The notes under the pieces were generated by a model. It ran no database searches. It saw only the letters and a program-made list of their open reading frames with translations, and was not told the origin of the DNA. Position numbers and translations under genes: made by a program. A stretch of DNA of 64,000 bases from Paludibacteraceae bacterium (GTDB taxonomy: Bacteria > Bacteroidota > Bacteroidia > Bacteroidales > Paludibacteraceae). The stretch lies in NCBI GenBank assembly GCA_045587145.1, contig JAZNBO010000038.1, forward strand, positions 4,275 to 68,274, written 5' to 3'. Numbering within the stretch: the first letter of the stretch is position 1; the number at the start of each line of letters is the position of its first letter. This document shows positions 707 to 59,370 of this stretch, piece after piece.

Positions 707-803
707 AGTGTAGAGTGGTGTAGAATAGTTTAGAATGGTGTAGAATTGTACTATGCTACACAATACTACACAACGCTACACAATGCTAAACAAAATTGAA
801 AAA
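707..803. repeat. rnf intercistronic element copy A (4x GTGTAG-type hexamers, GTAC centre, 4-5x CTACAC-type hexamers, CAAAATTGAAAAA tail)
   Basis: Near-identical to 1810-1915 and 3151-3258; hexamers phased every 10 bp. Confidence 0.9.
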
Positions 804-813
804 TTTTTATATT

Positions 814-1809
814 ATGAAACCATTTATAGTATCTCCTGCACCTCACTTTCATAGCGGTGATAGCGTGCGGAAAAATATGTTGTTGGTGATCATCGCCCTG
901 CTGCCAGCTTACGTAGTGAGTGTGTTGGCATTCGGTTGGGGTGCACTCATCACCACAGCAATCAGCATCGCAGCATGTGTGCTGTTTGAGTGGCTGATTG
1001 CGAAATTTATCTTGAAACAAAAATCTACCATCTGCGACCTCTCTGCCGTACTGACTGGTTTGCTCCTCGCGTTCAACTTGCCAAGCAATTTGCCTTGGTG
1101 GATCGTAGTGATCGGCGCGTTGGTGGCTATCGGTGTGGCGAAGATGAGCTTCGGTGGATTAGGACAAAACCTCTTCAACCCAGCGTTGGTAGGTCGTGTA
1201 TTCTTGCTCATCTCTTTCCCTGCACAAATGACCACATGGCCAGTGCCACAAGGTTTTGCTACTTCTTATGTGGATGCAACCACTGGTGCTACTCCATTGG
1301 CAGCGTTGAAAGTGGCATTGCAAGGCAGTGATAGTATGCTTAACATTATCCCTAAGACTTGGGACGTACTCATCGGTTGGATGGGTGGTAGCTTGGGCGA
1401 GGTGAGTGCATTGCTCCTTCTTGCTGGTGGTATCTTCCTCATTATCACTCGCGTGATCACATGGCATATTCCAGTAAGTATCTTGGCTACTGTGGCATTG
1501 TTTGCTGCTGTGACAGGTTGGGCAGGCATGTTGCCAGAGGGCCTCTGCACATGCCAATACACTATGTTGAGTCTCTGCACTGGTGGTATGATGCTCGGTG
1601 CTTGGTTCATGGCGACAGACTATGTGACCTCTCCAATGAGCAACTGGGGTAAGATCATCTTCGGTATCGGCATCGGTCTGATCGTGATGGTGATTCGTAC
1701 ATGGGGCGCATACCCAGAAGGTATGTCGTTTGCTATCCTGATTATGAACGCTTGCGTTCCATTGTTGAACTTGATTCGTCCAAAACGCTTTGGCGAGAAG
1801 AAGAAATAA
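814..1809 (+). CDS. rnfD: Rnf complex subunit D (RnfD/NqrB family)
   Basis: Polytopic membrane ORF; APHFHSG N-terminus and TGATPL motif; ATG 814 preferred over TTG 796, which lies inside the repeat element. Confidence 0.9.
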   Translation: MKPFIVSPAPHFHSGDSVRKNMLLVIIALLPAYVVSVLAFGWGALITTAISIAACVLFEWLIAKFILKQKSTICDLSAVLTGLLLAFNLPSNLPWWIVVIGALVAIGVAKMSFGGLGQNLFNPALVGRVFLLISFPAQMTTWPVPQGFATSYVDATTGATPLAALKVALQGSDSMLNIIPKTWDVLIGWMGGSLGEVSALLLLAGGIFLIITRVITWHIPVSILATVALFAAVTGWAGMLPEGLCTCQYTMLSLCTGGMMLGAWFMATDYVTSPMSNWGKIIFGIGIGLIVMVIRTWGAYPEGMSFAILIMNACVPLLNLIRPKRFGEKKK

Positions 1810-1915
1810 AGCGCAAAGCGCCGTGTAGAGTGGTGTAGGATCGTTTAGAATAGTGTAGAATTGTACAACGCTACACAATACTACACAACGCTACACAATG
1901 CTAAACAAAATTAAA
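1810..1915. repeat. rnf intercistronic element copy B (with GCGCAAAGCGC mini-hairpin after the stop codon)
   Basis: Direct alignment by eye to copies A and C; only a few substitutions. Confidence 0.9.
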
Positions 1916-1921
1916 AAGATT

Positions 1922-2563
1922 ATGGCAAAATTAGTAAGTTCATTCAAGAATATGGCGCTCTCGCTAACCTGCATTGCACTAGTAGCAGCAGGAGCATTGG
2001 CGGGAGTGTATATGCTGACCATGGCGCCCATTGAGGCAGCTATGAAGGCAAAACAAGAAGCTGCTATCATGCAAGTATTGCCTCAGGTAGAAGGCTTGCA
2101 AGTAGCAGAAGCAGAAGATGCAAACGGCATCACTCTCTACAAAGCGTATGTAGGCGAAGAGTGGGTAGGTACAGCCGTTGAGGCAAGCACAGAGGGCAAC
2201 GCAAACATGCCTTTTGGTGGTACATTCCGCTTGATGGTTGGTTTTGATAACGTAGGCAACGTAGTAAACTATGTAGTACTTGAGCAAGCAGAGACCCCAG
2301 GTCTTGGTGCGCTGATGGTATCATGGTTCTGCAATGCGGATAAACCAGGACAAAACATCATTGGTAAGAATCCTGCTACCACCAACTTCACCGTAAGCAA
2401 AGATGGTGGCGATGTAGACGCAATCACTGCTTCTACTATCACATCGCGTGCGTTCCTTGAGGTAGTAGTGAAGGCTTACAACGCTATCGCTCAACAACCT
2501 ATGCCTATCGAGGCAACTAGCGGTGCAACACAATTAACAACTGAGGAAGGAGGCCAACAATGA
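1922..2563 (+). CDS. rnfG: Rnf complex subunit G (FMN-binding)
   Basis: N-terminal TM helix; FMN-attachment-like motif DAITASTITSRA; operon context; ATG 1922 preferred over ATG 1898 inside the repeat. Confidence 0.8.
   Translation: MAKLVSSFKNMALSLTCIALVAAGALAGVYMLTMAPIEAAMKAKQEAAIMQVLPQVEGLQVAEAEDANGITLYKAYVGEEWVGTAVEASTEGNANMPFGGTFRLMVGFDNVGNVVNYVVLEQAETPGLGALMVSWFCNADKPGQNIIGKNPATTNFTVSKDGGDVDAITASTITSRAFLEVVVKAYNAIAQQPMPIEATSGATQLTTEEGGQQ
2547..2553 (+). promoter_or_regulatory. Shine-Dalgarno-like AAGGAGG 6 nt upstream of the rnfE ATG
   Basis: AAGGAGG read directly; this is the only rnf junction without the repeat element and it has an ATGA stop/start overlap. Confidence 0.5.
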
Positions 2564-3150
2564 AAAATAAAGCATTAAGTACAGTATTAAACGGTATCTT
2601 GCGCGAGAACCCTGTGTTTGCGTTGGTACTCGGTATGTGTCCTACCTTGGCGACTACCACTTCAGCTATCAATGGTATGTCCATGGGACTTGCAACCACT
2701 TTTGTGCTCGTGTGCTCAAATGTGGTGATCTCACTTTTGAAAAACTTGATTCCAGATAAGGTACGTATCCCTGCATTCATCGTGGTGATTGCTACCTTCG
2801 TAACCATGGTACAATTGCTCATGCAAGCCTACTTGCCTTCTATTTATGATGTGCTCGGTTTGTTCATTCCGCTGATCGTAGTGAACTGTATCGTACTTGG
2901 TCGTGCAGAGGCTTTTGCAGCTAAGAACACCGTAGGATTGTCTGCTTTGGATGGCCTTGGCATGGGCTTGGGCTTTACCTTGGCATTGACTTTGATTGGT
3001 GCAGTACGTGAGTTGCTCGGTACAGGTTGCGTATTTGGCTTGAACCTCTATAGCGAGACTTATGGCATGCTCATCTTCGTATTGGCTCCTGGTGCGTTTA
3101 TCGTATTGGGCTACTTGATGGCATTGGTGCAGAAACTTTTGAAAAAGTAA
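2560..3150 (+). CDS. rnfE: Rnf complex subunit E
   Basis: 196-aa membrane protein; LGMCPTLATT motif typical of RnfE/NqrD. Confidence 0.9.
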   Translation: MKNKALSTVLNGILRENPVFALVLGMCPTLATTTSAINGMSMGLATTFVLVCSNVVISLLKNLIPDKVRIPAFIVVIATFVTMVQLLMQAYLPSIYDVLGLFIPLIVVNCIVLGRAEAFAAKNTVGLSALDGLGMGLGFTLALTLIGAVRELLGTGCVFGLNLYSETYGMLIFVLAPGAFIVLGYLMALVQKLLKK

Positions 3151-3258
3151 GGCGCATAGCGCCGTGTAGAGTGGTGTAGAATCGTTTAGAATAGTGTAGA
3201 ATTGTACAACGCTACACAATACTACACAACACTACACAATGCTACACAAAATTGAAAA
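3151..3258. repeat. rnf intercistronic element copy C (with GGCGCATAGCGCC mini-hairpin)
   Basis: Near-identical to copies A and B. Confidence 0.9.
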
Positions 3259-3268
3259 TTTTGATATT

Positions 3269-3862
3269 ATGGTATATTTCTTGATATTTATCTCTGCGAT
3301 ATTCGTTAATAATATCGTATTGAGCCAATTCTTGGGTATTTGCCCATTTTTGGGAGTAAGTAAGAAAATTAGCACAGCATTGGGTATGGGTGCAGCTGTA
3401 ACCTTCGTTATGGCATTGGCTACTTTGGTTACCTATTTGTTGCAACAGTTGCTCAACGCATGGGGACTTGGTTTCTTGCAAACTATATTGTTCATCTTGG
3501 TGATTGCCGCTTTGGTGCAAATGATTGAGATCGTATTGAAGAAGATCTCTCCTGCTTTGTATCAAGCATTGGGTGTGTTCTTGCCATTGATTACCACCAA
3601 CTGCTGCTTGCTTGGTGTGGCTATCATGGTAGCAACAGGTACTTATAAATTGCCTATGGGCGCTGAGCCAAGCATGTTGACTGGTTTGCTCTTCGCTATC
3701 GCAACCGCTTTGGGCTTTGCCGTAGCATTGGTATTGTTCGCAGGTATGCGCGAGCAATTGGCAATGGCTAAAGTGCCAAAAGCAATGCAAGGAACTCCTA
3801 TCGCCCTTTTGACTGCTGGTCTTTTGGCGATGGCATTCATGGGCTTTAGCGGTGTAGTATAA
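3269..3862 (+). CDS. rnfA: Rnf complex subunit A
   Basis: LGICPFLGVS motif; 6-TM-like profile; ATG 3269 preferred over ATG 3239 inside the repeat. Confidence 0.9.
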   Translation: MVYFLIFISAIFVNNIVLSQFLGICPFLGVSKKISTALGMGAAVTFVMALATLVTYLLQQLLNAWGLGFLQTILFILVIAALVQMIEIVLKKISPALYQALGVFLPLITTNCCLLGVAIMVATGTYKLPMGAEPSMLTGLLFAIATALGFAVALVLFAGMREQLAMAKVPKAMQGTPIALLTAGLLAMAFMGFSGVV

Positions 3863-3882
3863 GACTGTTTGTATATATAGCA

Positions 3883-3920
3883 ACAAAAACCACTTCATTA
3901 ATGAGGTGGTTTTTGTTTTG
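3883..3920. terminator. Bidirectional intrinsic terminator between rnfA and the MerR-family gene
   Basis: AAAAACCACTTCATTAATGAGGTGGTTTTT hairpin flanked by A and T tracts. Confidence 0.75.
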
Positions 3921-3933
3921 AAGATATGATATT

Positions 3934-4764
3934 TTACTTTATGTCTATCGGCACCTGTATTATTGACAACCATTTTTCAGGATCTTCTTGATTCCAGATA
4001 CCATCTATGTAGCATGTGCGTGGATGCCCAATCATTTGATAACCTTTTTCTTCCATATATTTGAACGCTTCCGCAAACGATTCATAAAATCGTTCGTATG
4101 GACCGATATGTTTCACACATAGTGCTTTCTCAACGGCAGGAAGACGTTTGAATTGTATGATGTGACTATCTTGCCCCATTTCAGCGACTTGTTCGCAATA
4201 CTCAATATCTATACTATCTGGAGAAAACTCTGTGCTATGTTCAATAGTAAAGCAATAACCTGGCATAGGGCATTGACATCCTAATCGTTGCATCTCTGGA
4301 CCGATTTTCTCTACGCACAACATTCCGAGCGCGCTATAATCAGGAATGACTTCTCGATGACTTGCTACGATGACTTCGGGCAATGATTCAATGTTATATT
4401 TCTCCATATGGTTATATTTTTCAGAAGTTTCTATCCAGTTTTTCAGTTGGTCTCGTCTATTTATTAGTTGTTTTAATTGTTCTTCTGTTTTGTTAATCTT
4501 TTCTGTTAGTTGTTTTATGCTTGGCATGTGTGAATCTTCTTCGAATACTTCTTTTATTTCTTCCAGCGAAAAGCCCAAGCGTTGAAGCTGACGAATAGCG
4601 TTCAACTTTTGCATTTGACAAATGGTATAATAGCGATAACCTGTCCATTCGTCCACTTCATCGGGTAAAAGCAAGCCCTTTTTTTCGTAGTGACGAAGTG
4701 TTTTTACGGTCACTTGCATCATTTGTGAAAACTCTCCGATTTTCAATTTCGTTTTTTGTTTCAT
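3934..4764 (-). CDS. MerR-family transcriptional regulator with C-terminal GyrI-like effector-binding domain (BmrR-like architecture)
   Basis: N-terminal HTH KIGEFSQMMQVTVKTLRHYEKKGLL plus coiled-coil, then a ~150-aa C-terminal domain. Confidence 0.8.
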   Translation of the reverse strand: MKQKTKLKIGEFSQMMQVTVKTLRHYEKKGLLLPDEVDEWTGYRYYTICQMQKLNAIRQLQRLGFSLEEIKEVFEEDSHMPSIKQLTEKINKTEEQLKQLINRRDQLKNWIETSEKYNHMEKYNIESLPEVIVASHREVIPDYSALGMLCVEKIGPEMQRLGCQCPMPGYCFTIEHSTEFSPDSIDIEYCEQVAEMGQDSHIIQFKRLPAVEKALCVKHIGPYERFYESFAEAFKYMEEKGYQMIGHPRTCYIDGIWNQEDPEKWLSIIQVPIDIK

Positions 4765-5176: not shown

Positions 5177-7750
5177 ATGAACATGAAAATAGATTGGAAG
5201 AAGATTCTGCCATACGCCGTGGCAATTGTGGCATTCGTGGCAGTGGCGATGATTTATTGCGCTCCTGTATTGGAGGGCAAAGTGCTAGTACAAGGTGATG
5301 TGAACAACTGGAAAGGTGCTGCACAAGAGGCACGTACTTTCTACGACGAGCATGGTACACGTACATGGTGGACCAACTCTATGTTTGGCGGTATGCCTAC
5401 CTACCAGATTACAGGTAGCTTGCCATCTGGTGAAGTGCGCAATGGTATGGCAAAGATCGCTCACCTCGGCATGGAAGGCGGATGGGAAGCCATCGGTATC
5501 ATCTTTGCCTACTTCTTCGGATTCTTCCTCTTGCTTCGTTGTTTTAAGGTCAATCCATGGCTGAGTATCATTGGTGGTTTTGCGATAGGATTCTCGACTT
5601 ATTTCTTTTTGATTATTCCTGCGGGACATATCACCAAGGCTATGGCACTTGGTTTCCTGGCACCCGTTATAGGTGGATTCTATGCTATCTTCCGCAAACA
5701 ATATTGGTTGGGCGCTCCACTCATGGTGCTATACGGTATTCTGAGTATCACTCTCCACCCACAGATGACCTATTATATCTTCATGCTTATTGGTATTATG
5801 GCATGTGCAGAATTGTACATCCATATCAAGGAGAAAGCGTGGAAAGACTTGGGTATATCTGTTGGCGTAGTAGCACTCAGTTTGTTGCTCATCGTGGGTA
5901 CCAAACTCAGTTGGCTCGAAATGAACCAAAACTACCTCAAAGAAACCATGCGTGGTGGACACTCGGAACTGAGAGGCGATGAGGCGAAAGGCGAAAAGGC
6001 GAAAGGCGGAGGTTTAGACTTGGACTACGCTACCGCATGGAGTTATGGTGTGGATGAAACAATGACTTTCCTTATCCCTAACTGGGAAGGTGGTGCGAGC
6101 GGATATAATGTGGGCGAGAAGTCGCAACTTTGCGAGACGATGAAACAGAATGGCGTACCCAAACGTTCTGCCGAACAGTTCTGTGGGCAAGTGCCTACCT
6201 ATCGTGGAGAGAAAGCCTTTACGAGTGGTCCTGTATATATGGGTGCTATTATTTGTTTCCTCTTTGTACTCGGATTGCTGATTGTGAGCGGTCCATACAA
6301 ATGGGCACTGCTTGTAGCTACACTATTCTCCGTTGCATTGGCATGGGGTAGAAATATGATGTGGCTCACAGAACTCTTCTTCAACTACTTCCCAATGTAC
6401 AACAAGTTCCGCGCCGTGGAGAGTATCCTTGTAGTGGCAGAGATCACAATGCCATTGCTCGGTATCATGGCATTGCAACAAGTAGTAGAGAAGAAAATAG
6501 CATGGGATAAGCTAAGAATAAGCATCCTTACCGCTGCTGGTATCACAGGTGGTTTATGCCTCATATTTGCTTTGTTTGGTGCTGCGGTAGATGTAACCAG
6601 TAGTTACGACGGCCAATGGGTAAGCCAAGTGCCTGCATGGCTCAAAGATGCTATCTACGATGAGCGTGTAGCCATGATCAAAGCTGATGCTTGGCGCTCA
6701 CTGATATTTATCGTACTTGGTGCAGGATTGGTATATTGGTATAGTTGGCAGGCTATGAGGCGAGAAGGCGATAAGGCAATGAGGAAATGGACTATTGGTT
6801 TTTATGCACTCCTCGCTGCGCTCGTGCTCGCCGATATGATTCCAGTGAATAAGCGTTTCTTTGGAAATAATAACTTTGTAAAAGCCAAAGATGCTGAACG
6901 ATATTTTGCTATTCAGCCATACGAGGAGCAGATTTTAGAGGATGAGTCGTATTACCGTGTATTGAACTTGGCGACAAATACTTTTAATGATGCACGCACA
7001 AGTTATCGATTGAAATCTATCGGTGGTTATTCGGCTGCAAAATTGCGTCGTTACCAAGATTTGATAGATGAGCATATTTCTAAAGAAATGAATCCGCTGA
7101 TGCAAACGGTGATGCGTACGCAGGGCTTTATGATACCAGATGAGAATGCTGGCAAGGATTTCCCTGTACTGAATATGCTCAATATGAAGTACGCAGTCAT
7201 GCCATTGCAAGGAGGACAGCAAGTACCCGTTATGAACCCGTATGCGATGGGCAATTGTTGGTTTGTGGACGAGGTAATATTGGTAGATACGCCTGATGAG
7301 GAGTGCGCTGCGTTGAGAACGTTGGATTTGCACAAACAGGCGGTGGCTGATAAGAAGTTTGCGGAGGTATTGGATATTACTAAACCCGAGGTGACACCAT
7401 TGATGGCATTTGATGAGAATGTGATCGAGTTGACCTCTTATGCGCCAAACTGCTTGGAGTATGCGGCTATGACCGAGCAAAACAAGGTGGCAGTATTCTC
7501 TGAGATTTACTATCCATATGATTGGCACTTGTATTTGGTAAATGCGAATGGCGAGCAAGTAGAAATTCCTCTTGCACGAGTGAATTATACTTTACGTGCA
7601 GCCGTTATCCCTGCGGGCGCACATCAATTGCGTATGGTCTTTGAACCACATGCTTTGAAGACCGATAAAGCATGCATGGCTATTCTTATTCTTGCATTGC
7701 TTCTGAGCGTAGGTGCTTTAACCTCTCCTTTGTGGAGAAAACAGAAATAA
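5177..7750 (+). CDS. YfhO-family polytopic membrane protein (GT-C-like glycosyltransferase candidate)
   Basis: 857 aa; many TM helices in the N-terminal two thirds, soluble C-terminal domain, final TM; N-terminus typical of Bacteroidota YfhO proteins. Confidence 0.7.
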   Translation: MNMKIDWKKILPYAVAIVAFVAVAMIYCAPVLEGKVLVQGDVNNWKGAAQEARTFYDEHGTRTWWTNSMFGGMPTYQITGSLPSGEVRNGMAKIAHLGMEGGWEAIGIIFAYFFGFFLLLRCFKVNPWLSIIGGFAIGFSTYFFLIIPAGHITKAMALGFLAPVIGGFYAIFRKQYWLGAPLMVLYGILSITLHPQMTYYIFMLIGIMACAELYIHIKEKAWKDLGISVGVVALSLLLIVGTKLSWLEMNQNYLKETMRGGHSELRGDEAKGEKAKGGGLDLDYATAWSYGVDETMTFLIPNWEGGASGYNVGEKSQLCETMKQNGVPKRSAEQFCGQVPTYRGEKAFTSGPVYMGAIICFLFVLGLLIVSGPYKWALLVATLFSVALAWGRNMMWLTELFFNYFPMYNKFRAVESILVVAEITMPLLGIMALQQVVEKKIAWDKLRISILTAAGITGGLCLIFALFGAAVDVTSSYDGQWVSQVPAWLKDAIYDERVAMIKADAWRSLIFIVLGAGLVYWYSWQAMRREGDKAMRKWTIGFYALLAALVLADMIPVNKRFFGNNNFVKAKDAERYFAIQPYEEQILEDESYYRVLNLATNTFNDARTSYRLKSIGGYSAAKLRRYQDLIDEHISKEMNPLMQTVMRTQGFMIPDENAGKDFPVLNMLNMKYAVMPLQGGQQVPVMNPYAMGNCWFVDEVILVDTPDEECAALRTLDLHKQAVADKKFAEVLDITKPEVTPLMAFDENVIELTSYAPNCLEYAAMTEQNKVAVFSEIYYPYDWHLYLVNANGEQVEIPLARVNYTLRAAVIPAGAHQLRMVFEPHALKTDKACMAILILALLLSVGALTSPLWRKQK
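5971..6012. repeat. GGCGAAAGG-type 7-8-bp array in frame inside yfhO (encodes GDEAKGEKAKGGG)
   Basis: GAGAGGCGATGAGGCGAAAGGCGAAAAGGCGAAAGGCGGAGG read directly. Confidence 0.85.
6751..6790. repeat. Degenerate GGCGAnAAGG-type array in frame inside yfhO (encodes AMRREGDKAMRKW)
   Basis: GGCTATGAGGCGAGAAGGCGATAAGGCAATGAGGAAATGG. Confidence 0.6.
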
Positions 7751-12042: not shown

Positions 12043-12091
12043 GTAGTGTGGTATAAGGTTGTGTAGTGTTGTTTAGAGTGGGGTAGAGTCG
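12043..12091. repeat. 10-bp-phased TAG-word array between the ispD-like start and the kdsC-like 3' end
   Basis: GTAGTGTGGTATAAGGTTGTGTAGTGTTGTTTAGAGTGGGGTAGAGTCG; supplies the kdsC-like C-terminus NDSTPL and its stop. Confidence 0.8.
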
Positions 12092-12587: not shown

Positions 12588-12637
12588 TGTTTAGAGTTGT
12601 TTAGAATCGTTTAGAGTTGTTTAGAATTGTGTAAAAA
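12588..12637. repeat. Perfectly 10-bp-phased GTTTAGA(G/A)T array x4-5
   Basis: TGTTTAGAGT TGTTTAGAAT CGTTTAGAGT TGTTTAGAAT TGTGTAAAAA; encodes the GT4 C-terminus YTILNNSKRF and its stop. Confidence 0.9.
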
Positions 12638-13743
12638 GTATTTGCCATGCCAGACCAGGAGTAGCGGTCTTTCTGCTGAATCAGGTACTGGGTGTAGTCG
12701 GCTTGTCGATTGTTAGTGTAGTAGTCGGTGATGGCCTCGGCGATAGCATCTGCATTAGGTTTGACTGCATATCCCATCTTATGGTCGTGAACTATCTCGC
12801 CTAAGCCTCCTACATTGGTCACTAGCATTGGTTTCTCGAAATGGAACGCCACTTGTGTTACGCCACTCTGTGTGGCCGATTTATAAGGTTGCACAATCAA
12901 ATCAGCAGCACCAAAATACTTGCACAAGTCGGCATCTGCGATAAAGTCGTTTTTGATAATCACTCTATCAGCTAAATTGTTGTTAGCTATTTGTGCGCGG
13001 TATTTCTCCTCGTCCTCGTAGAACTCGCCTGCCACTATCAGTCGCAAGTCTGGTAGTAGGTCTTTTACTTTGCCAAAAGCATCAAGCAGAAGATCAAGCC
13101 CTTTGTATGCTCTAACCAAACCAAAGAAAAGCATATACTGCTTCTTAGGGTCAAGGTTGAGCGCTTGGCATGCCTCGTTTTTCTCCATCTGTGCACCATA
13201 GTGGTCATAGATAGGGTGGGGATATGATGTTTTTGGTTTGACGTGTTTGTCAAGCGAATCAATATCTCTCACCACACTCTCGGACAATGCCACAAAACCG
13301 TCGGTATTGCGCACATAGAATGGGGCAAGCAGTTTGTCGAGAATGTTTGGTTCGTGCGGTATCATATTGTGTACCAAAGCGATACAACGTGTTTTGCCAT
13401 TGCGTTTAGCGATGCGCTGGATGATGCCGTAGCATGGTGCGAAGAACGCCATCCAGTAGCAAGAGATGAGCAGGTCGGGCTGCATGCGGCGAATCTTATT
13501 GCCAACTTTCCACCAATTGAGAGGGTTGCAGGAATGGACTTGCTGCGTGATATGTAGGTCGGCAGGCTGTTGTTCGTTGGAGTATTGCGTTTTGCCAGGA
13601 AAGAGGAAGGACGGATATTGCAGGGTGAAAGTAATGACTTCCACCTCGTGTCCTTCTGCTTGCAGTTGGCGAGCAAGGCGTTCGTTGAACGCTGCTAATC
13701 CTCCGCGGAAAGGGTATGCTGTGCCGAGTAGGACGATATGCAT
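12601..13743 (-). CDS. Family-4 (GT-B) glycosyltransferase
   Basis: 380 aa; N-terminus HIVLLGTAYPFRGGLAAFNERLA; C-terminal EX7E-like region (GEIVHDHKMGY). Confidence 0.8.
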   Translation of the reverse strand: MHIVLLGTAYPFRGGLAAFNERLARQLQAEGHEVEVITFTLQYPSFLFPGKTQYSNEQQPADLHITQQVHSCNPLNWWKVGNKIRRMQPDLLISCYWMAFFAPCYGIIQRIAKRNGKTRCIALVHNMIPHEPNILDKLLAPFYVRNTDGFVALSESVVRDIDSLDKHVKPKTSYPHPIYDHYGAQMEKNEACQALNLDPKKQYMLFFGLVRAYKGLDLLLDAFGKVKDLLPDLRLIVAGEFYEDEEKYRAQIANNNLADRVIIKNDFIADADLCKYFGAADLIVQPYKSATQSGVTQVAFHFEKPMLVTNVGGLGEIVHDHKMGYAVKPNADAIAEAITDYYTNNRQADYTQYLIQQKDRYSWSGMANTFYTILNNSKRF

Positions 13744-16352: not shown

Positions 16353-16395
16353 TTGGTGTAGGGTTGTTTAGAATTGTTTAGAGTAGTTTAAAGAG
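16353..16395. repeat. 10-bp-phased GTGTAG/GTTTAG array after the ruvA stop
   Basis: TTGGTGTAGGGTTGTTTAGAATTGTTTAGAGTAGTTTAAAGAG. Confidence 0.8.
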
Positions 16396-23877: not shown

Positions 23878-23912
23878 CGTGCCTTTACACCTTACACTAT
23901 TCACTATAAACT
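23878..23912. repeat. C/A-strand word array (CCTTTACAC CTTACAC TATTCAC TATAAAC) just upstream of the ATPase start
   Basis: Reverse complement matches GTGTAAGGTGTAAAGGCACG at 28364-28386. Confidence 0.65.
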
Positions 23913-23915
23913 AAA

Positions 23916-24398
23916 ATGTTTAAGGTTGGTATTATCGGCCCTGAGTCCACAGGCAAGAGTACGCTTGCACAGTATTTGGCCACTCAACATGGTGGATTGT
24001 TCGTTTCCGAGCATGCGCGCGTATATTTAGAGGAGCGAGCGCGCGAGCACGGGAGCGCATACGCGTACACGCGCGAAGATGTGTTGCGCATAGCAGAATA
24101 TCAGGTAGAACAACTTCGTGAACTGTCTCAGCAAGAGGGAGTGGCGTTTTTTGATACAGAACTGATAATCACAAAAGTGTGGTTTGAGCACAAATATGGT
24201 GAGTGTCCTTCGTTTGTAGAAGATGCCTTGCACCAATATCCGATGGACGTGTACTTGTTGTGTTATCCCGATTTGGAGTGGGAACCTGACCCCGTGCGCG
24301 AGAACCCTAATATACGCGAGTACCTATTTGATTGGTATGAGCGTGAGATTCAAGCATTAGACATACCGTATTATATTGTTCGGCATAGTGTAGGGTAG
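23916..24398 (+). CDS. P-loop ATPase/kinase (NadR C-terminal-domain-like)
   Basis: Walker A GPESTGKST; 160 aa. Confidence 0.55.
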   Translation: MFKVGIIGPESTGKSTLAQYLATQHGGLFVSEHARVYLEERAREHGSAYAYTREDVLRIAEYQVEQLRELSQQEGVAFFDTELIITKVWFEHKYGECPSFVEDALHQYPMDVYLLCYPDLEWEPDPVRENPNIREYLFDWYEREIQALDIPYYIVRHSVG

Positions 24399-24452
24399 GG
24401 TTGTATAGGGTAGTGTAGGATGGTGTAGAGTTGTATAAGGTAGTGCAAGATG
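24387..24452. repeat. 10-bp-phased GTGTAGG/GTATAGG array; supplies the last codons (HSVG) and stop of the ATPase gene
   Basis: AGTGTAGGGTAGGGTTGTATAGGGTAGTGTAGGATGGTGTAGAGTTGTATAAGGTAGTGCAAGATGG. Confidence 0.8.
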
Positions 24453-24470
24453 GAAATAGTATAAATAACA

Positions 24471-24497
24471 AAGAAGACCGCTATTAGCGGTCTTCTT
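24471..24497. terminator. Bidirectional terminator hairpin (ATPase gene and tRNA-Arg)
   Basis: AAGAAGACCGC-TATTA-GCGGTCTTCTT. Confidence 0.8.
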
Positions 24498-25344: not shown

Positions 25345-25378
25345 TTTTGCGTAATTGAAAAAAAAGTAGTACCTTTGT
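25345..25378 (+). promoter_or_regulatory. Bacteroidota promoter for the phosphoglucomutase gene
   Basis: TTTTGCGTAATT, spacer, then TACCTTTG at 25370-25377. Confidence 0.65.
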
Positions 25379-25390
25379 AGGCGATAAAGT

Positions 25391-25442
25391 AGGCAATAGG
25401 TGATGGGCAATAGGTGATGGGCTATTGGTTATTGGCTATGGT
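25391..25442. repeat. GGCAATAGG/GGCTATTGG 8-bp-type array in the pgm 5' UTR
   Basis: AGGCAATAGGTGATGGGCAATAGGTGATGGGCTATTGGTTATTGGCTATGG. Confidence 0.85.
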
Positions 25443-27299: not shown

Positions 27300-27373
27300 G
27301 TTGTGGGGGGAGGTTGTTGAAAGGTGTTGAAAGTCTGTGAGATGTGAGGAGGAAGTCATGGTGATTATTCGGT

Positions 27374-27421
27374 GAAGTTCCTATGAAGTTCCTATGAAGA
27401 TCCTATGAAGTTCCTATGAAA
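27374..27421. repeat. Tandem 11-bp repeat GAAGTTCCTAT x4 (third copy GAAGATCCTAT)
   Basis: Read directly. Confidence 0.95.
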
Positions 27422-27506: not shown

Positions 27507-28349
27507 CTATAACTCAATATGGTGAGCGGTGATAGGTTCGGAGAGGAAGATGGATGCCGACTCGGAGAATTTTGTGGCAGACTCAGTGGTGAGGTAGGTG
27601 ACAGCTTGTTTTTCTCCCTTTTGAGCGTGCTCAGCGATGTCGGGATGGCGTAGAAGGTAGTCTTGCAGGCTGTTGGCTACGATTGCCCCTTGTGCAATAA
27701 CAGATATGTGGCTATTGGCGATTGGCGATTGGCTATGGGAAATGGAAGAAAGAAAGGCTTCAATCTTGGGTTGGAGTAGGGGGTAGTGGGTGCAGCCGAG
27801 AATGATAGTGTCAATCAGTGGATCGCGAGTGAGGAGCTCGGTGAGGTATTTCTCAACGAAATAATCAGCACCAGAATGCAGATGTTCACCTGATTCAATC
27901 AGAGGTACCCACATCGGACACGCTTGTTGGGTGATGGTTAGGGTGGGGTCCTGTTTAAGCAACTCGATGATATAACTCTCGGAGGCTACCGTGCCAGGGG
28001 TAGCAAGAACGCCAATATGCTTGGTGCGAGTGCGCTGCGGTACAACTTCTACCGTAGGGCGGATAACACCTAAGACACGAAGCTCATCAGGATTGATATT
28101 GCGCTGTTGGATAGTGCGAAGTGCCTTAGCACTAGCCGTATTACAAGCGAGAATGATAAGATTGCAGCCTTGTTGGTGGAGATAATTAACAGCTTGAAGG
28201 GTATATTCGTAAATGACATCAAATGAGCGTGTTCCGTATGGCGCACGAGCATTATCGCCCAGGTAGAGATAATCGTACTGGGGGAGATGTTGGCGAATGT
28301 GATTGAGAATCGTTAGTCCGCCGTAACCACTGTCAAATATACCTATCAT
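27507..28349 (-). CDS. murI: Glutamate racemase
   Basis: IGIFDSGYGGLT, LACNTAS and LGCTHYP motifs; ATG 28349 preferred, since the tracked ORF's 41-aa N-terminal extension runs through the promoter. Confidence 0.9.
   Translation of the reverse strand: MIGIFDSGYGGLTILNHIRQHLPQYDYLYLGDNARAPYGTRSFDVIYEYTLQAVNYLHQQGCNLIILACNTASAKALRTIQQRNINPDELRVLGVIRPTVEVVPQRTRTKHIGVLATPGTVASESYIIELLKQDPTLTITQQACPMWVPLIESGEHLHSGADYFVEKYLTELLTRDPLIDTIILGCTHYPLLQPKIEAFLSSISHSQSPIANSHISVIAQGAIVANSLQDYLLRHPDIAEHAQKGEKQAVTYLTTESATKFSESASIFLSEPITAHHIEL
27709..27739. repeat. GGCTATTG/GGCGATTG 8-bp array in frame inside murI (encodes HSQSPIANSHIS)
   Basis: TGGCTATTGGCGATTGGCGATTGGCTATGGG. Confidence 0.85.
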
Positions 28350-28352: not shown

Positions 28353-28386
28353 ATGTAAAGTGTAAGGTGTAAAGTGTAAAGGCACG
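28353..28386. repeat. 7-bp TGTAAAG/TGTAAGG array in the murI 5' leader
   Basis: ATGTAAAGTGTAAGGTGTAAAGTGTAAAGGCACGG. Confidence 0.85.
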
Positions 28387-28397: not shown

Positions 28398-28435
28398 GCA
28401 AAGGTACAAAAAATAAATAAAATGCGCAAATAATT
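28398..28435 (-). promoter_or_regulatory. Bacteroidota promoter for murI
   Basis: Plus-strand CAAAGGTA at 28399-28406; the -33 region overlaps the dnaN -33. Confidence 0.65.
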
Positions 28436-30418: not shown

Positions 30419-30453
30419 CCATTCTATACAACCCTATATTACCCTATATAACA
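30419..30453. repeat. 10-bp-phased CTATACA/CTATATA array (C/A strand) just upstream of the rnz start
   Basis: CCATTCTATACAACCCTATATTACCCTATATAACA. Confidence 0.75.
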
Positions 30454-38839: not shown

Positions 38840-38878
38840 ATACAACTCTATACAATTCTATACAACTATGGTACAACA
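38839..38878. repeat. 10-bp-phased CTATACAA array spanning the MFS start codon
   Basis: AATACAACTCTATACAATTCTATACAACTATGGTACAACA. Confidence 0.75.
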
Positions 38879-42930: not shown

Positions 42931-42962
42931 CTATCCACCGCTTATCCACCGCTTATCCACCC
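42931..42962. repeat. 11-bp tandem repeat (C/T)TATCCACCGC x3
   Basis: Read directly. Confidence 0.9.
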
Positions 42963-43050: not shown

Positions 43051-43058
43051 GTTATATA

Positions 43059-43108
43059 TAGCCTATCGCCTATCGCCAATAGCTAATAGCCAATAGCCTA
43101 TCGCCAAT
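43059..43108. repeat. GCCTATCGCC/AATAGCC 8-bp-type array (complement orientation of the GGCnATnGG family)
   Basis: TAGCCTATCGCCTATCGCCAATAGCTAATAGCCAATAGCCTATCGCCAAT. Confidence 0.85.
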
Positions 43109-43113
43109 AATCC

Positions 43114-50382: not shown

Positions 50383-50423
50383 CCTTGCCTTTCGCCTTTA
50401 GCCTTTCGCCTTTAATCTCTTTA
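50383..50423. repeat. CCTTTCGCC array (complement of GGCGAAAGG); supplies the DedA C-terminus KRLKAKG and its stop
   Basis: CCTTGCCTTTCGCCTTTAGCCTTTCGCCTTTAATCTCTTTA. Confidence 0.85.
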
Positions 50424-51173: not shown

Positions 51174-52193
51174 CTATATTTCCCATTGTTCGAGGGTAGT
51201 GGTGAGTTGGTCGAATGTCTTTACCTTACTCTTTTCACGAACTTCATTAATCTGCTGATTGACAGCAGCGTCGTATGCCTCCGTTTCTACGCGGCGAATG
51301 ACACCGAGGGCGATTGGCAATTGGCAATTGGCAATTGGCGATGGGTCTTCTTGTCCCATCATAGCAAGCATGCGATGGAGGGTAGGGTCTTGCAGTGTGG
51401 CATCGTGGGTGAGTACGCGTGGGTCTTCGGCTGGCACTACGATGAGTTGAGGAATCAATCCCTGTGAGTAGTCTAATGCTAAGCCTTTGTCTTTCGCTTT
51501 GCCGAAAATCATTTTTTCTCCATGGCGCAGAATGATACTGCGTTCAGCACGCTCTTCGCGGTCTGCAATCCATGAGTGGGTACCATTGTTGAAAATCACG
51601 CAGTTTACCAAACACTCAATCACACTAGCACCTTTGTGTTGAGACGCCTGTACCATGCAGTCCACTGTGGTAGGCATATCTACGTCCAATGTGCGAGCGA
51701 AGAACGTACCGCGTGCGCCAAATACCAATTCGGCAGGAATAAAGGGACGCTCTACGGTACCAAATGGACTGGACTTGCTGACAAATCCCTTGGGTGAAGT
51801 AGGTGAGTATTGACCTTTGGTCAAACCATAAATGCGGTTGTTGAAGAGGCAGATGTTCAAATCTACATTGCGGCGGATCTCATGGATAAAGTGATTACCA
51901 CCAATAGCGAGGCAGTCGCCATCGCCTGTCATTTGCCAAACGCTGAGTTCTGGGTGGCTGGTTTTTACGCCAGTAGCAATAGCTCCACCGCGACCATGAA
52001 TGGTATTAAAGCCGTAGGTGTTGAGGTAGTGAGGCATACGAGATGAACAACCGATACCTGATATCACGGCTACTTGGTGTGTTGGTACGCCTACTTGTGC
52101 CATGGCTTTTTGTAACGCCATGCAGATAGCATGATCACCACAACCAGGGCAGAACTTTACATATTGATTACTCTTAAATTGACTTGCTTCCAT
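51174..52193 (-). CDS. korB: 2-oxoglutarate/2-oxoacid:ferredoxin oxidoreductase beta (TPP-binding) subunit
   Basis: CPGCGDH and TGDGDCLAIGGNH motifs; ATG 52193 lies 2 nt after the korA stop, so the tracked longer ORF overlaps korA. Confidence 0.85.
   Translation of the reverse strand: MEASQFKSNQYVKFCPGCGDHAICMALQKAMAQVGVPTHQVAVISGIGCSSRMPHYLNTYGFNTIHGRGGAIATGVKTSHPELSVWQMTGDGDCLAIGGNHFIHEIRRNVDLNICLFNNRIYGLTKGQYSPTSPKGFVSKSSPFGTVERPFIPAELVFGARGTFFARTLDVDMPTTVDCMVQASQHKGASVIECLVNCVIFNNGTHSWIADREERAERSIILRHGEKMIFGKAKDKGLALDYSQGLIPQLIVVPAEDPRVLTHDATLQDPTLHRMLAMMGQEDPSPIANCQLPIALGVIRRVETEAYDAAVNQQINEVREKSKVKTFDQLTTTLEQWEI
51309..51345. repeat. GGCAATTG 8-bp array in frame inside korB (encodes SPIANCQLPIA)
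   Basis: GGCGATTGGCAATTGGCAATTGGCAATTGGCGATGGG. Confidence 0.9.
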
Positions 52194-52195
52194 AA

Positions 52196-55964: not shown

Positions 55965-55967
55965 GAG

Positions 55968-56015
55968 GATTGGGGCTATTGGCTATTGGTTATTGGCTAT
56001 GGGCGAGGGGATAGG
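55968..56015. repeat. GGCTATTGG 8-bp array after the lepA stop
   Basis: GATTGGGGCTATTGGCTATTGGTTATTGGCTATGGGCGAGGGGATAGG. Confidence 0.85.
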
Positions 56016-57407: not shown

Positions 57408-57408
57408 T

Positions 57409-57445
57409 TAGGCGACGAGGCGAAAGGCTATTAGGCGAGAAGCAA
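57409..57445. repeat. GGCGAnGAGGCGAAAGGC array after the permease stop
   Basis: TAGGCGACGAGGCGAAAGGCTATTAGGCGAGAAGCAA. Confidence 0.8.
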
Positions 57446-57471
57446 GAAATAGCGGCTTTGCCGCATGCCCC

Positions 57472-57503
57472 AGCCTTTTACCTCTAACCTTTAATCTTTA
57501 AAC
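57472..57503. repeat. 7-bp CCTTTAA-type array upstream of the yqeY start
   Basis: CAGCCTTTTACCTCTAACCTTTAATCTTTAAA. Confidence 0.75.
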
Positions 57504-57513
57504 AGATAATAAT

Positions 57514-57966
57514 ATGAATCTTTTCGAACAAATCAGCGAGGACATCAAGAAAGCGATGCTCGCAAAGGATAAAGTGGCGTTGGACGCGCTGCGTGGTATA
57601 AAGAAAGAGTTCTTGGAGGCCAAGACCGCCAAAGGCGGCGATGGCGAGTTGCACGATGACCGTGCCTTGCAGATTCTGCAAAAGATGGTGAAGCAACGCA
57701 AAGAGGCAGCCGAGATGTTCCGTGCTGCCAATCGCCCAGAACTGGCAGAGGATGAGATGGCGCAATGTGCTGTCATTGAGCGCTATCTGCCTGCTATGAT
57801 GAGCGAAGAGGAATTGAAGACTGTTTTGGCAGAGATTATTGCGCAAGTAGGTGCTACTGGTCCACAGGATATGGGTAAGGTGATGGGCGTTGCAACAAAG
57901 CAGTTGGCAGGCAAAGCAGAAGGCAAAACCATTAATATGGTAGTACGTCAATTGCTAACAAAGTAA
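57514..57966 (+). CDS. GatB/YqeY-domain protein
   Basis: 150 aa; MNLFEQISEDIKKAMLAKDK...LRGIKKEF typical of the YqeY family. Confidence 0.85.
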   Translation: MNLFEQISEDIKKAMLAKDKVALDALRGIKKEFLEAKTAKGGDGELHDDRALQILQKMVKQRKEAAEMFRAANRPELAEDEMAQCAVIERYLPAMMSEEELKTVLAEIIAQVGATGPQDMGKVMGVATKQLAGKAEGKTINMVVRQLLTK

Positions 57967-57968
57967 TT

Positions 57969-58583
57969 GTGTTTAAGATTTTTCAGAAAGCAATATTTGC
58001 CGGTATATGCATTGGTATTGCTGGCTGGGGTTTCCTAGTGGATAAAACACTGGGAATGTTCCTTTTTATTTTTGGACTGGCAACGGTGGTGTCGTATGAG
58101 GCTAAACTCTATACGGGAGTGTCGGGCTTCTGTCAGAACTTGAGCGATATAAAGCAATTGGTCGCAATTATTCTGCCAGGAAACATTATAGGTTGCTTGT
58201 TAGTGGCACTGATGAGTATGTTTACCACCTTACCTGTACATGAAGCGGCATGCGGTGTGTTAACCTCCCGATTGGCGAGTGGACCGCTGGCATGCGGCGT
58301 GTTGGGCATAGGTTGTGGTATATTAATGACAAGTGCCGTGGCTTTTGCTAAAAAAGGTAAGGAGTTTGGTTATTGGGTGCCTTTGCTTTTCGCTGTACCA
58401 TTGTTCATTCATTGCGGTTTTCCGCACTGTATAGCGGATGCATTCTACTATTTGACTGCTGCGGACTACATCATAGAGCAACCTCAAGTGTTGTGGTGCT
58501 ATCTGATGACGGTAATCGGTAACTTTGTAGGGTGTAATGTGCCAAGAATGAATTATTTTGCAGAAAAATGCACTAAAAAGTAG
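57969..58583 (+). CDS. Small polytopic membrane protein, formate/nitrite-transporter-like
   Basis: GFPHCIADAFYY resembles the FNT GFEHS(I/V)ANM motif; only 204 aa; GTG start. Confidence 0.4.
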   Translation: MFKIFQKAIFAGICIGIAGWGFLVDKTLGMFLFIFGLATVVSYEAKLYTGVSGFCQNLSDIKQLVAIILPGNIIGCLLVALMSMFTTLPVHEAACGVLTSRLASGPLACGVLGIGCGILMTSAVAFAKKGKEFGYWVPLLFAVPLFIHCGFPHCIADAFYYLTAADYIIEQPQVLWCYLMTVIGNFVGCNVPRMNYFAEKCTKK

Positions 58584-58784
58584 TTTTTTTTGTAAAATAT
58601 TTGGTCATATATGCGGGTTGAAACCCTCCATTTATCGAACAGTAGTACCTTCGGACGCCGCCTTGCGATTTGTTCGATTTTTACAAGAAAATCTCACAAA
58701 TGGAGCAATTCCCCCGAAGTTACGTTTGCTAAATGCTGCAAATATGCACTTTTTTACTATAAAAATGCATTTTTTCATAAAAAA

Positions 58785-58833
58785 ATTTGCATATTTGCAT
58801 TTTTTGTAGTACCTTTGCACTCGCTTTTGAAAA
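58785..58833 (+). promoter_or_regulatory. tRNA-Leu promoter plus conserved leader
   Basis: TTTGCATATTTGCA, spacer, then GTACCTTTGCACTCGCTTTTGAAAA (25 nt identical to the tRNA-Arg leader). Confidence 0.75.
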
Positions 58834-58840
58834 AGAGCAT

Positions 58841-58924
58841 GCCCAGATGGCGGAATCGGTAGACGCGCTGGTCTCAAACACCAGTAGGTTCACCCCTGTG
58901 CCGGTTCGACCCCGGCTCTGGGTA
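58841..58924 (+). tRNA. tRNA-Leu (anticodon CAA), long variable arm, no encoded CCA
   Basis: Acceptor GCCCAGA/TCTGGGT; anticodon stem CTGGT/ACCAG with loop CTCAAAC; T arm CCGG-TTCGACC-CCGG. Confidence 0.9.
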
Positions 58925-58926
58925 CA

Positions 58927-58958
58927 AAGGCCGCCTAACAAAAGTTAGGTGGCCTTTT
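58927..58958 (+). terminator. Terminator-like hairpin after tRNA-Leu
   Basis: AAGGCCGCCTAAC-AAAA-GTTAGGTGGCCTTTT. Confidence 0.7.
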
Positions 58959-59056
58959 AAATTGAGAATTATTTATTAACCCATAAAAAGGTCAGGCGGG
59001 AGACTTAAACATCCGCTATCACTCGGAACGGGCTAACTGCCTGGAGAGACAAAGAG

Positions 59057-59063
59057 AAGGAGG
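59057..59063 (+). promoter_or_regulatory. Strong Shine-Dalgarno AAGGAGG 8 nt upstream of the rpsU ATG
   Basis: Read directly; matches the known SD-dependent autoregulation of bS21 in Bacteroidia. Confidence 0.75.
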
Positions 59064-59071
59064 TGTATGCA

Positions 59072-59266
59072 ATGATCATTGTACCAGTAAAGGAAGGCGA
59101 GAACATCGAGCGCGCGATTAAGAAATTCAAACGCAAATTTGACAAGACCGGTGTAGTGAAAGAGCTTCGTCGTCGTCAACAATTCTCAAAACCATCAGAG
59201 ATCAAGCGTGAGAAAATGATGCACGCAATCTATGTGCAATCTTTGCATGCGCATGATGGCGAGTAA
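59072..59266 (+). CDS. rpsU: 30S ribosomal protein S21
   Basis: MIIVPVKEGENIERAIKKFKRKFDKTGV; ATG 59072 preferred over GTG 59063. Confidence 0.95.
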   Translation: MIIVPVKEGENIERAIKKFKRKFDKTGVVKELRRRQQFSKPSEIKREKMMHAIYVQSLHAHDGE

Positions 59267-59287
59267 TTCGTAAGAAAGCGAAGATAA

Positions 59288-59320
59288 TAAAAAAGCATAC
59301 CGATGGGTGTGCTTTTTTTT
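59288..59320 (+). terminator. rpsU intrinsic terminator
   Basis: AAAAAAGCATACC-GAT-GGGTGTGCTTTTTTTT. Confidence 0.8.
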
Positions 59321-59370
59321 GTTGTGTAGAATGGTATAGTATGGTGTATGGTTGTGTGGGGTAGTGCAAA
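59321..59370. repeat. 10-bp-phased GTGTAG/GTATAG array after the rpsU terminator
   Basis: GTTGTGTAGAATGGTATAGTATGGTGTATGGTTGTGTGGGGTAGTGCAAA. Confidence 0.8.

Follow-up and report, generated by a model that had tools for sequence, protein, structure and literature searches.

Genes of an uncultured member of the Paludibacteraceae (Bacteroidota; metagenome-assembled genome (MAG) GCA_045587145.1) carry short tandem arrays in front of their start codons, and the strand on which these arrays lie follows the gene: within 40 nt upstream of a start, the C/A-rich strand is the mRNA sense strand of 27 decamer arrays and the G/T-rich strand that of 2 (p = 1.6e-6). The arrays were noticed in a stretch of 64,000 nt (contig JAZNBO010000038.1, positions 4,275 to 68,274 of the forward strand; hereafter the window), for which a preliminary description made from the letters had proposed an orientation-specific leader module, C/A-rich before start codons and G/T-rich after stop codons. 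As the best reading overall, held with about even confidence, we propose that slippage-driven repeats are filtered by the needs of Shine-Dalgarno (SD)-independent initiation and serve as ribosome landing sites. With confidence of the same, middling order we regard the arrays as tandem repeats prone to slippage, with 7-11-nt units, which form a family that is young and confined to one clade.

The genome under study (G000) comprises 1.90 Mb in 41 contigs (labelled C with a number) at 44% GC, and its non-coding share is 14%. Gene starts were taken from our own simple, home-made gene caller, and copy numbers of long arrays may be collapsed, the assembly being a MAG. The decamer unit consists of CTA[A/C/T]AC and about four variable bases, and a decamer array was defined as at least three GTNTAG/CTANAC words in 10-bp phase. 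Short tandem arrays were listed by Tandem Repeats Finder (TRF) at a score of at least 40, with a shuffled genome as control. Other labels beginning with G0 denote genomes of relatives and those consisting of L and a number denote loci; the relatives are non-independent samples; the nearest rnfD loci belong to uncultured Paludibacteraceae MAGs of ruminant and horse guts.

Orientation of the Arrays Relative to Genes

The genome-wide enumeration and orientation test that the preliminary description had suggested was carried out on G000, and the ratio of 27:2 is its outcome; by-eye correction of the start at C14:20751 changes it to 27:3 (p = 8e-6). Sixteen of the C/A arrays precede plus-strand genes and 11 precede minus-strand genes, often on one contig. 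Within single contigs, the type of array read on the plus strand switches with the strand of the gene; it is thus the gene, and not the replichore, that governs the rule, and replication-strand bias was rejected as its cause. The arrays end at a median of 9 nt before the ATG (range -19 to 33, usually 1-15 nt) and often begin a few bases past the upstream stop codon, thereby making up the entire spacer; for at least 27 genes a C/A array is the whole leader. The strand rule was replicated in a second species, G007, with 13 C/A arrays against 1 G/T array near starts in the 247 kb sampled.

The bias depends on the distance to the start. Among skewed arrays of period 7-11, 39 are C-rich and 16 G-rich in the last 10 nt before a start (p = 0.003), whereas at more than 100 nt from it the numbers are 52 and 69 (near versus far, Fisher p = 6e-4), and this position dependence speaks against a general transcription-strand mutation bias. 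The second half of the proposed rule, G/T-rich words after stop codons, stood in part. Skewed arrays of period 7-11 show a modest excess in the first 10 nt after a stop, 60 being G-rich and 37 C-rich (p = 0.025), whereas decamers within 40 nt after a stop are reversed, C/A to G/T being 14 to 7, because most of these arrays fill the whole spacer. For arrays of period 7-11, the start/stop pattern is mirrored at 51-100 nt, with no bias beyond 100 nt. The mirrored skew arises from modules in which a G-rich arm precedes a C-rich arm (G-then-C modules, see below), and G/T-rich sequence after stops is mostly a consequence of this two-part architecture and no independent rule.

Arrays in the Window

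All nine C/A-rich arrays that the preliminary description had placed ahead of named start codons were found where it had put them, their words, read in mRNA sense, ending 0-22 nt ahead of the start. The same was true of the G/T words following the stops of rnfC, rnfD, rnfE, ruvA and the ATPase gene and following the rpsU terminator, and the gene names used there are all backed by Pfam. The two exceptions named there, G/T-type arrays upstream of sprA and of the mutase gene, are both real on reading of the sequence. The features are as follows, on the strand of the gene concerned.

708..746, plus strand: G/T arm of the rnfC-rnfD module, four GTGTAG/GTTTAG words with a 10-nt period, beginning 1 nt past the rnfC stop (704-706)
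753..793, plus strand: C/A arm of the rnfC-rnfD module, CTACAC three times and CTAAAC, then an A/T-rich leader of 20 nt and the rnfD ATG at 814
1810..1908, plus strand: second rnf module as a whole, with a small GC hairpin (1810-1822) and the G/T arm (1823-1861)
1865..1908, plus strand: C/A arm of the second rnf module, before the rnfG ATG at 1922
3151..3249, plus strand: third rnf module as a whole, with a GC hairpin (3151-3163) and the G/T arm (3163-3202)
3206..3249, plus strand: C/A arm of the third rnf module, before the rnfA ATG at 3269
12043..12088, minus strand: C/A array abutting the ATG (12042) of an IspD-like cytidylyltransferase gene
12588..12631, minus strand: C/A array of a HAD/KdsC-like gene, CTAAAC four times, 2 nt short of the ATG (12585)
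16355..16393, plus strand: G/T array (in mRNA sense) between ruvA and sprA, an exception, 3 nt past the ruvA stop and 17 nt before the sprA GTG (16411)
23882..23915, plus strand: C/A words of the AAA_28 ATPase gene, CTTTACAC, CTTACAC, TATTCAC and TATAAAC, with a period of about 7-8
24386..24445, plus strand: G/T array that includes the ATPase stop TAG (24396-24398), followed by a terminator-like hairpin (24473-24495)
25378..25441, plus strand: G-rich heptamers in the 5' untranslated region (5'UTR) of a phosphoglucomutase-family gene, an exception, adjoining the -7 box (25370-25377) and 35 nt from the ATG (25476)
28354..28382, minus strand: C/A heptamer array of murI, CTTTACA four times, 4 nt before the ATG (28349)
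30419..30453, plus strand: C/A words (CTATAC, CCTATA) of a metallo-beta-lactamase-fold (rnz-like) gene, lying between a stop codon and the TTG (30454)
38840..38867, plus strand: C/A decamers of an MFS transporter gene, CTATACAAYT three times, from the upstream stop to the ATG (38868)
59321..59366, plus strand: G/T array directly after the rpsU terminator hairpin (59295-59320)

The C/A words at 23882-23915 span the spacer between sprA and the ATPase gene as far as the ATG at 23916. At 12588-12631 the CTAAAC array serves two neighbouring genes, giving the first its last residues and stop codon and the second its leader: the stop (12601-12603) of a glycosyltransferase open reading frame (ORF; 12601-13743, minus strand) lies within the array of the HAD/KdsC-like gene. 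The period-10 arrays listed by TRF were the following, and many period-7 arrays were listed in the window as well.

rnf region: 708-746, 753-793, 1823-1861, 1865-1908, 3164-3202, 3206-3249
rest of the window: 12588-12630, 16364-16390, 24396-24441, 38840-38867

In a search of the window with Rfam 15, no family reached its gathering score for the arrays and two tRNAs were the only hits. An exact-protein look-up with the product of the KdsC-like gene gave no match.

Probable Position in the mRNA and Composition of Array-Led Leaders

First-in-operon genes have the Bacteroidota -7 box (TAnnTTTG) 26-43 nt upstream of the array. This applies to an array of 31 units and 306 nt at C17:65052 and to the murI array in the window, which is placed in the 5'UTR by the -7 box TACCTTTG at 28399-28406. 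Lying downstream of -7 boxes or between cistrons, the arrays would be contained within mRNA.

The leaders made of arrays differ markedly in composition from the other leaders of G000 and from the same leaders with the array inverted in silico (minimum free energy, MFE, was computed from -60 to +21):

G fraction: 0.03 in array-led leaders, 0.16 in other leaders, 0.25 with the array inverted
C fraction: 0.30 in array-led leaders, 0.17 in other leaders, 0.08 with the array inverted
A fraction: 0.46 in array-led leaders, 0.36 in other leaders, 0.29 with the array inverted
start codons per 60 nt: 0.48 in array-led leaders, 2.65 in other leaders, 6.0 with the array inverted
MFE (kcal/mol): -1.8 in array-led leaders, -10.2 in other leaders, -14.0 with the array inverted

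Given the G and C fractions of ordinary leaders, this composition is not inherited from them. Of the array leaders, 89% have adenine at -13 and 63% have it at -3; by our own gene calls, the start context of G000 in general is of the Bacteroidia type, with A at -3, -6 and -12 to -14, lacks an SD sequence and has 9-15% G upstream. The assumption of the preliminary description that such leaders suit SD-independent initiation is in line with these values. In Flavobacterium johnsoniae, structure and adenines upstream of the start tune initiation, and start codons have few AUG triplets in their neighbourhood (PMC6847099). In Escherichia coli, single-stranded CA-repeat tails of 16-18 nt are strong standby sites that strongly raise translation (PMC5934652), and ACA motifs have been described as translation enhancers (PMC3879156). 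The arrays offer single-stranded C/A-rich stretches of at least 16-18 nt, except for the C arms of the rnf type, which are predicted to be paired.

Abundance and Periodicity

Genome-wide, GTNTAG pairs occur 112, 81, 59 and 41 times at spacings of 10, 20, 30 and 40 nt, neighbouring spacings being found about 3 times. Although 14% of the genome is non-coding, 38 of the 51 decamer arrays are intergenic (p = 3e-22). By spacer type the deviation from expectation is only mild: divergent spacers contain 2 of these 38 against 19% expected by length (p = 0.036), and convergent spacers contain 1 of 38, which is not significant. Tandem arrays were present in 23% of the spacers of at least 20 nt. In the 13 genic decamer arrays the C/A strand is always the sense strand, and this is forced, because 44 of the 51 arrays have every frame of the G/T strand closed, whereas 46 of 51 leave one or more frames of the C/A strand open. 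The thirteen in-ORF arrays (C17:8151-8236, C39:16662-16717, C20:48587-48632, C38:87457-87502 and nine more) are predicted to insert 10-residue peptide repeats, e.g., LHNPTQPYTT, in the called ORFs.

The 10-bp phasing noted in the preliminary description is sharp for the GTNTAG words, but it is not special, because the genome is full of short tandem arrays of other periods: TRF listed 92 rows of period 10 against 2 in the shuffled genome, 255 against 0 of period 7 and 103 against 5 of period 11. Helical phasing at 10 bp was therefore rejected as the key feature, periods of 7, 8 and 11 nt being equally or more common. The period-11 arrays, about as common as the decamers, have unrelated units such as TGAAGTTCCTA and TATCCACCGCT (in the window at 27373-27420 and 42932-42961). 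Heptamer arrays number hundreds in the genome, the main families being ACACTTT, AATAGCC, AAGGTGT, AAAGGCG and AGAGGCG; examples in the window lie at 5974-6008, 25392-25439, 27709-27733, 43057-43109, 50387-50414, 51309-51339 and 55974-56004. Arrays of AATAGCC and AGAGGCG are often located in genes with one sense preferred (16:1 and 13:2, respectively).

Two-Part Modules

When two arrays of opposite skew lie no more than 40 nt apart, the G-rich one precedes the C-rich one in 25 cases and follows it in 1 (p = 8e-7). Since this order reads identically on both strands, the test is free of gene calls. The decamer G/T arrays are mainly the 5' arms of such modules, and the arms of one module often come from different word families. 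Besides the three rnf modules in the window, a fourth lies just upstream between rnfB and rnfC. For the rnf copies the predicted folding energy is -27 to -28 kcal/mol (z-scores -2.8 to -4.3). C/A words do precede the starts in the rnf operon, as the preliminary description had it, but there they form the 3' arm of a palindrome-like module and are predicted to pair with the G/T arm. A stable hairpin in the sense RNA was considered as the selected feature and found unsupported: among 19 untied modules in co-directional spacers the antisense RNA is predicted to be the more stable in 13 and the sense RNA in 6 (Wilcoxon p = 0.04).

Heptamer modules share a conserved centre, AGCGGCAAAGCCGCATATTACCAGCCT, present in about 35 copies. 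Their arms matched their own partner no better than the arms of other modules (permutation p = 0.65), hence no co-variation of the two arms was found in them. The heptamer modules can be described as a composite intercistronic element of the order (AGGCGAN or AGGTTAR)n, core AGCGGCAAAGCCGCATATTACCAGCCT, (CCTYTAA or CTTTACA)n, short leader and ATG, with the core mostly in one orientation relative to genes; sites in G000, outside the window, include C11:4223-4318, C24:27054-27153, C24:56927-57004, C28:19766-19867 and C4:6035-6132, among others.

Conservation and Turnover Among Relatives

The pattern CTANAC-N4-CTANAC-N4-CTANAC was detected in 19 of 61 genomes of the genus; about ten of these, which by the proS locus are the closest relatives, carry it heavily. 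For the reversed pattern, used as control, there was no match in the 61 genomes, and a search of 16 genomes of other families with a four-word CTANAC pattern gave no hit. That arrays are seen in many assemblies argues that they are real. In independent assemblies, an identical 101-aa DUF3467 protein is preceded by about 2, 5-6, 12, 15 and 20 units, one assembly having a scaffold gap within the array. Moreover, the orthologous spacers of G007 and G000 are wholly different although the downstream proteins are 74-98% identical. A fixed leader module, as the preliminary description implied, is not compatible with such a range of copy numbers before one identical protein or with orthologous spacers that contain other words or none. 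Judged by sequence comparison, the arrays are best regarded as hypervariable minisatellites. Loss of mismatch repair as the cause of their proliferation was rejected, as MutS (MutS_I domain) is intact in array-rich as well as array-free relatives; MutL_C is likewise intact in the array-rich relatives, the only ones searched for it.

At the proS junction most species have a compact TAATG overlap of stop and start codon, while 5, 6 and 2 units were found in G000, G012 and G049, respectively. The sister species use the words CTATAC, TTGAAC, AGTTAAAC and AATCGTAAAT, and each expanded version is poor in the purine G in sense, i.e., unrelated words have converged on the same property. An array-less species reads ...CGTAAACAATAT...TAATG and already contains the unit TAAACAATA, which is a plausible array seed within the compact sequence. 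The TAATG overlap is the ancestral state of the junction (loci L110-L129). In array-bearing proS loci the upstream gene is a few codons shorter and ends at the TAA of the array's first word; arrays thus remodel gene ends.

Three sister species share the rnfC-rnfD module with 91-100% identity, compared to 63-66% at the four-fold sites of rnfD, and the differences in the module fall in the 4-nt spacers, the words being unchanged. Modules are gained as well: at the rnfE-rnfA site G000 has a module of 115 nt, whereas the site is empty in L006 and L009 (TAAgattATG); comparison of the filled TAA[module]ATTATG with the empty site revealed no clear target duplication. L002 carries at this site a module of the same architecture made of GTTCAA/CTGAAC words, and the rnfG module is present in L006. 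SD-like sequences (GGAAGGAGG, GAGGAGG, AAGGAGG) were observed 6-9 nt before the rnfE and rnfC starts (window 2543-2553; C38 ~3625-3640) and also before rnfG in most relatives (L001-L015), which is unusual for Bacteroidia; before rnfG the SD-like sequence is replaced by the repeat module in G000 and L006, while L009 keeps AAGGAGG.

Interpretation and Alternative Explanations

We propose that, in one sub-clade of an uncultured genus of the Paludibacteraceae, repeats spread into 5'UTRs and into the junctions between stop and start codons, where the array would be transcribed as part of the mRNA. Initiation in Bacteroidia proceeds without SD and needs an unstructured, A-rich and AUG-poor region before the start; because of these needs only the guanine-free strand, which has no ATG, GTG or TTG and would meet no pairing partner, would survive beside the start codon. 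The C/A array would then be a working leader and, being the whole leader of housekeeping genes, would offer the 30S subunit an extended single-stranded landing (standby) site, probably via bS1. The G/T strand, which is rich in start codons and has TAG in each frame, would be tolerated only in the vicinity of stop codons, as the 5' arm of modules, or in 3' regions. In this way selection on initiation would be the cause of the orientation bias, the arrays might help initiation beyond not hurting it, and varied copy number may tune expression by degrees.

Several observations weigh against this proposal. The variation between about 2 and 20 copies and the many sister species without the spacer do not require a specific positive role. 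The rnf modules are conserved far above neutral sites, for which a landing pad alone offers no explanation, and their C/A arm is predicted to be paired, so that no free leader would be available there. Conservation, copy-and-paste and species-specific words taken together are not explained by the best reading, nor is the recurrence of words at dozens of loci with each species having its own. Furthermore, heptamer families are weakly biased (ACACTTT, 15 versus 8), and three G/T-sense arrays lie directly before starts, namely those of sprA, C40:7986 and C14:20751.

Alternatively, the orientation might be due to the origin of the arrays: a sense-strand junction consisting of a stop and an A-rich leader would have been duplicated, or leader cassettes copied, the arrays being otherwise neutral or selfish. 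This explanation, which we regard as unlikely though deserving weight, would account for the unit TAAACAATA in the array-less proS sequence and for the sister species with just two units, for the growth of a 2-unit DUF3467 seed to 12-20 units with the 3'-most unit fixed, and for the addition of the rnf module to new spacers of the same operon. However, G and C are about equally frequent in ordinary leaders, so random leader amplification would not yield 27:3, and the bias fades with distance from the start. In addition, the words beside the start are without exception poor in G, although different species have unrelated families of them, and the 25:1 order of G-rich and C-rich arms spans arms of different word families.

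The two-part modules could also function as coupling or stability hairpins, the terminating ribosome melting the G arm and thereby freeing the C/A arm and the start, or the upstream cistron being protected as it is by repetitive extragenic palindromic (REP) elements in E. coli operons. The G arm does begin no more than 18 nt past the stop in 12 of 20 modules of co-directional spacers, but a short distance also follows from a module filling its spacer. The predicted folding of the rnf copies, the presence of four modules in one operon for a stoichiometric membrane complex and module conservation well above neutral sites are in favour of this idea, while the lower predicted stability of sense RNA, the lack of specific matching between heptamer-module arms and the occurrence of modules in 5'UTRs without any upstream cistron make it rather improbable.

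The conservation of the rnf modules, together with 6-nt words that are fixed between species while the 4-nt spacers vary, might point instead to a trans-acting factor, either an RNA-binding protein or a G/U-rich small RNA pairing with CUACAC leaders, that would unite the genes in one post-transcriptional regulon. GcvB is an example of a small RNA acting on C/A-rich enhancers. A sister species having its own word in both arms within the same architecture (GTTCAA/CTGAAC as compared to GTGTAG/CTACAC) would fit this, as would the G/T array and terminator-like hairpin at 24386-24495 in the 3'UTR of the ATPase gene. Contrarily, about 2 to 20 copies are found at one gene, presence at orthologous spacers is not conserved, the genes led by arrays are housekeeping genes with no relation to one another, a single genome harbours many unrelated word families, and no candidate factor was identified; we consider such a factor doubtful. 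An extension of it is speculative and, in our estimation, has a slim chance of being correct: the 6-nt word of each species would be read in trans and the array-led housekeeping genes would form a co-evolving post-transcriptional network with copy number as its gain. The reader in this network, a repeat-reading RNA-binding protein or G/U-rich small RNAs derived from the G/T arrays, is equally conjectural.

Finally, a DNA or transcription element, i.e., arms resembling REP sequences, REP doublets forming hairpins (REPIN) or miniature inverted-repeat transposable elements (MITE) and moved by a REP-associated tyrosine transposase (RAYT), phased DNA-protein sites, or C-rich Rho sites, is highly improbable: presence/absence differences, near-identical module copies, C/A arrays that are richer in C than G and unstructured like rut sites, and one RAYT-like gene (PF01797, 26 bits, above cut-off) with GC hairpins resembling the heptamer-module core AGCGGCAAAGCCGCATATTACC (~35 copies) stand against a score below the NCBIfam RayT cut-off (49.9 versus 80 bits), no visible target-site duplication at the filled versus empty rnfE-rnfA site, periods of 7, 8, 10 and 11 nt that exclude helical phasing as the common factor, an orientation that follows the gene and not the contig strand, and the cost that strong Rho sites before proS, murI and rnf genes would have. 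A RAYT transposase driving the decamer arrays was rejected, as there was no co-occurrence across the 61 genomes: the RAYT-like protein was not found in the four most array-rich relatives, G007, G008, G012 and G013 (78-158 word triplets each), whereas it was found in many array-free genomes. The RAYT-like gene of G000 (C6:2269-3288, minus strand; L109) encodes 339 aa with an N-terminal Y1/HUH domain and a long C-terminal extension, is flanked by three hairpins (CTCGCGGGGAAGCCGCGAGCAyAtgACC) and has a 99% identical copy in G045; relatives possess 1-10 paralogues, but the most array-rich species none.

Comparison With Known Systems

The closest counterpart of the arrays described here are the TAACTGA heptamers reported by MacGregor (2015) in marine Beggiatoaceae, some Cyanobacteria and five Bacteroidetes including Paludibacter propionicigenes (PMC4679880). 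As in that case, tandem units are intergenic, overwhelmingly in forward orientation and mostly end within a few nt of the start, SD sequences are lacking, the downstream genes are unrelated, long arrays occur in some Bacteroidetes and the orthologous genes of close relatives are devoid of repeats (PMC4679880). A putative function in translation, with binding of S1, Csp or CsrA, was proposed for TAACTGA (PMC4679880). Our arrays share the orientation next to the start (27 versus 2-3), whereas the unit is not TAACTGA but CTA[ACT]AC plus 4 nt or heptamers such as CTTTACA and CCTYTAA, which makes them an analogue of the TAACTGA repeats and not a member. Unlike these, they comprise a 10-mer unit and many families of 7-11 nt with a guanine-free strand, are in many cases the 3' arms of G-then-C modules, belong to one sub-clade of a genus and show a copy-number series at strain level.

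Cyanobacterial short tandemly repeated repetitive (STRR) heptamers are lineage-specific tandem repeats as well. Long simple sequence repeats (LSSR) were surveyed in prokaryotes by Mrazek et al. (2007); according to the summary in PMC4679880 they are a sporadic, lineage-specific excess of 5-11-bp tandem units, heptamers being commonest; they are mostly intergenic, non-genic unit lengths are not multiples of 3 and slippage is assumed to be their source. The arrays have the head-to-tail units of 5-11 bp of LSSR and of variable number of tandem repeats (VNTR) loci, and copy number differs at one locus between close strains. They resemble LSSR and STRR in their sporadic 5-11-bp excess, while the start/stop strand rule and the G-then-C modules are not reported in what that summary relates of them. 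Phase-variation repeats switch a gene on or off through frame or promoter spacing, typically at surface or virulence genes. In the arrays copy number does vary; they are located downstream of the -7 box, in leaders that are not translated, and the genes concerned are housekeeping ones such as proS, murI and rnf.

With the CA-rich or ACA enhancers of enterobacteria (Sterk et al., 2018, PMC5934652; Yang et al., 2014, PMC3879156) the arrays have in common a single-stranded, G-poor and CA-rich stretch of at least 16-18 nt, and by analogy they most likely work like CA-rich standby sites. Those enhancers, in contrast, are short, unique or synthetic and accompanied by SD sequences, whereas here natural arrays of 30-300 nt are found in an SD-blind lineage. 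MITEs carrying minisatellites are known, e.g., from Porphyromonas gingivalis (PMC4596501). Likeness to the REP elements of Proteobacteria and their bacterial interspersed mosaic elements (BIME), to REPIN-RAYT systems and to MITEs consists in dispersed intercistronic, palindrome-like modules, presence/absence differences and a RAYT-like gene with GC hairpins; unlike in these, the tandem arms are variable, and both the G-then-C polarity and the placement between stop and start are strict. Neither the fixed terminal inverted repeats and target-site duplication of MITEs nor a RAYT flanked by and co-occurring with the repeat was found for the modules at hand.

Bacteroidia ribosomes ignore SD sequences, and the choice of start sites and the loading of ribosomes in this class are still being worked out. 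Dozens of natural guanine-free leaders together with series of about 2-20 units before identical proteins represent a natural experiment on the influence that length, composition and missing structure of the leader have on translation in SD-independent initiation. For annotation, the arrays mark true starts and gene ends in these MAGs. What the arrays add to the systems above is the architecture of G-then-C modules, the restriction to one clade and a copy-number series that is documented. The strand rule known from TAACTGA extends to other repeat families and to a stop-proximal G-rich partner, which suggests a general constraint and not a property peculiar to one heptamer.

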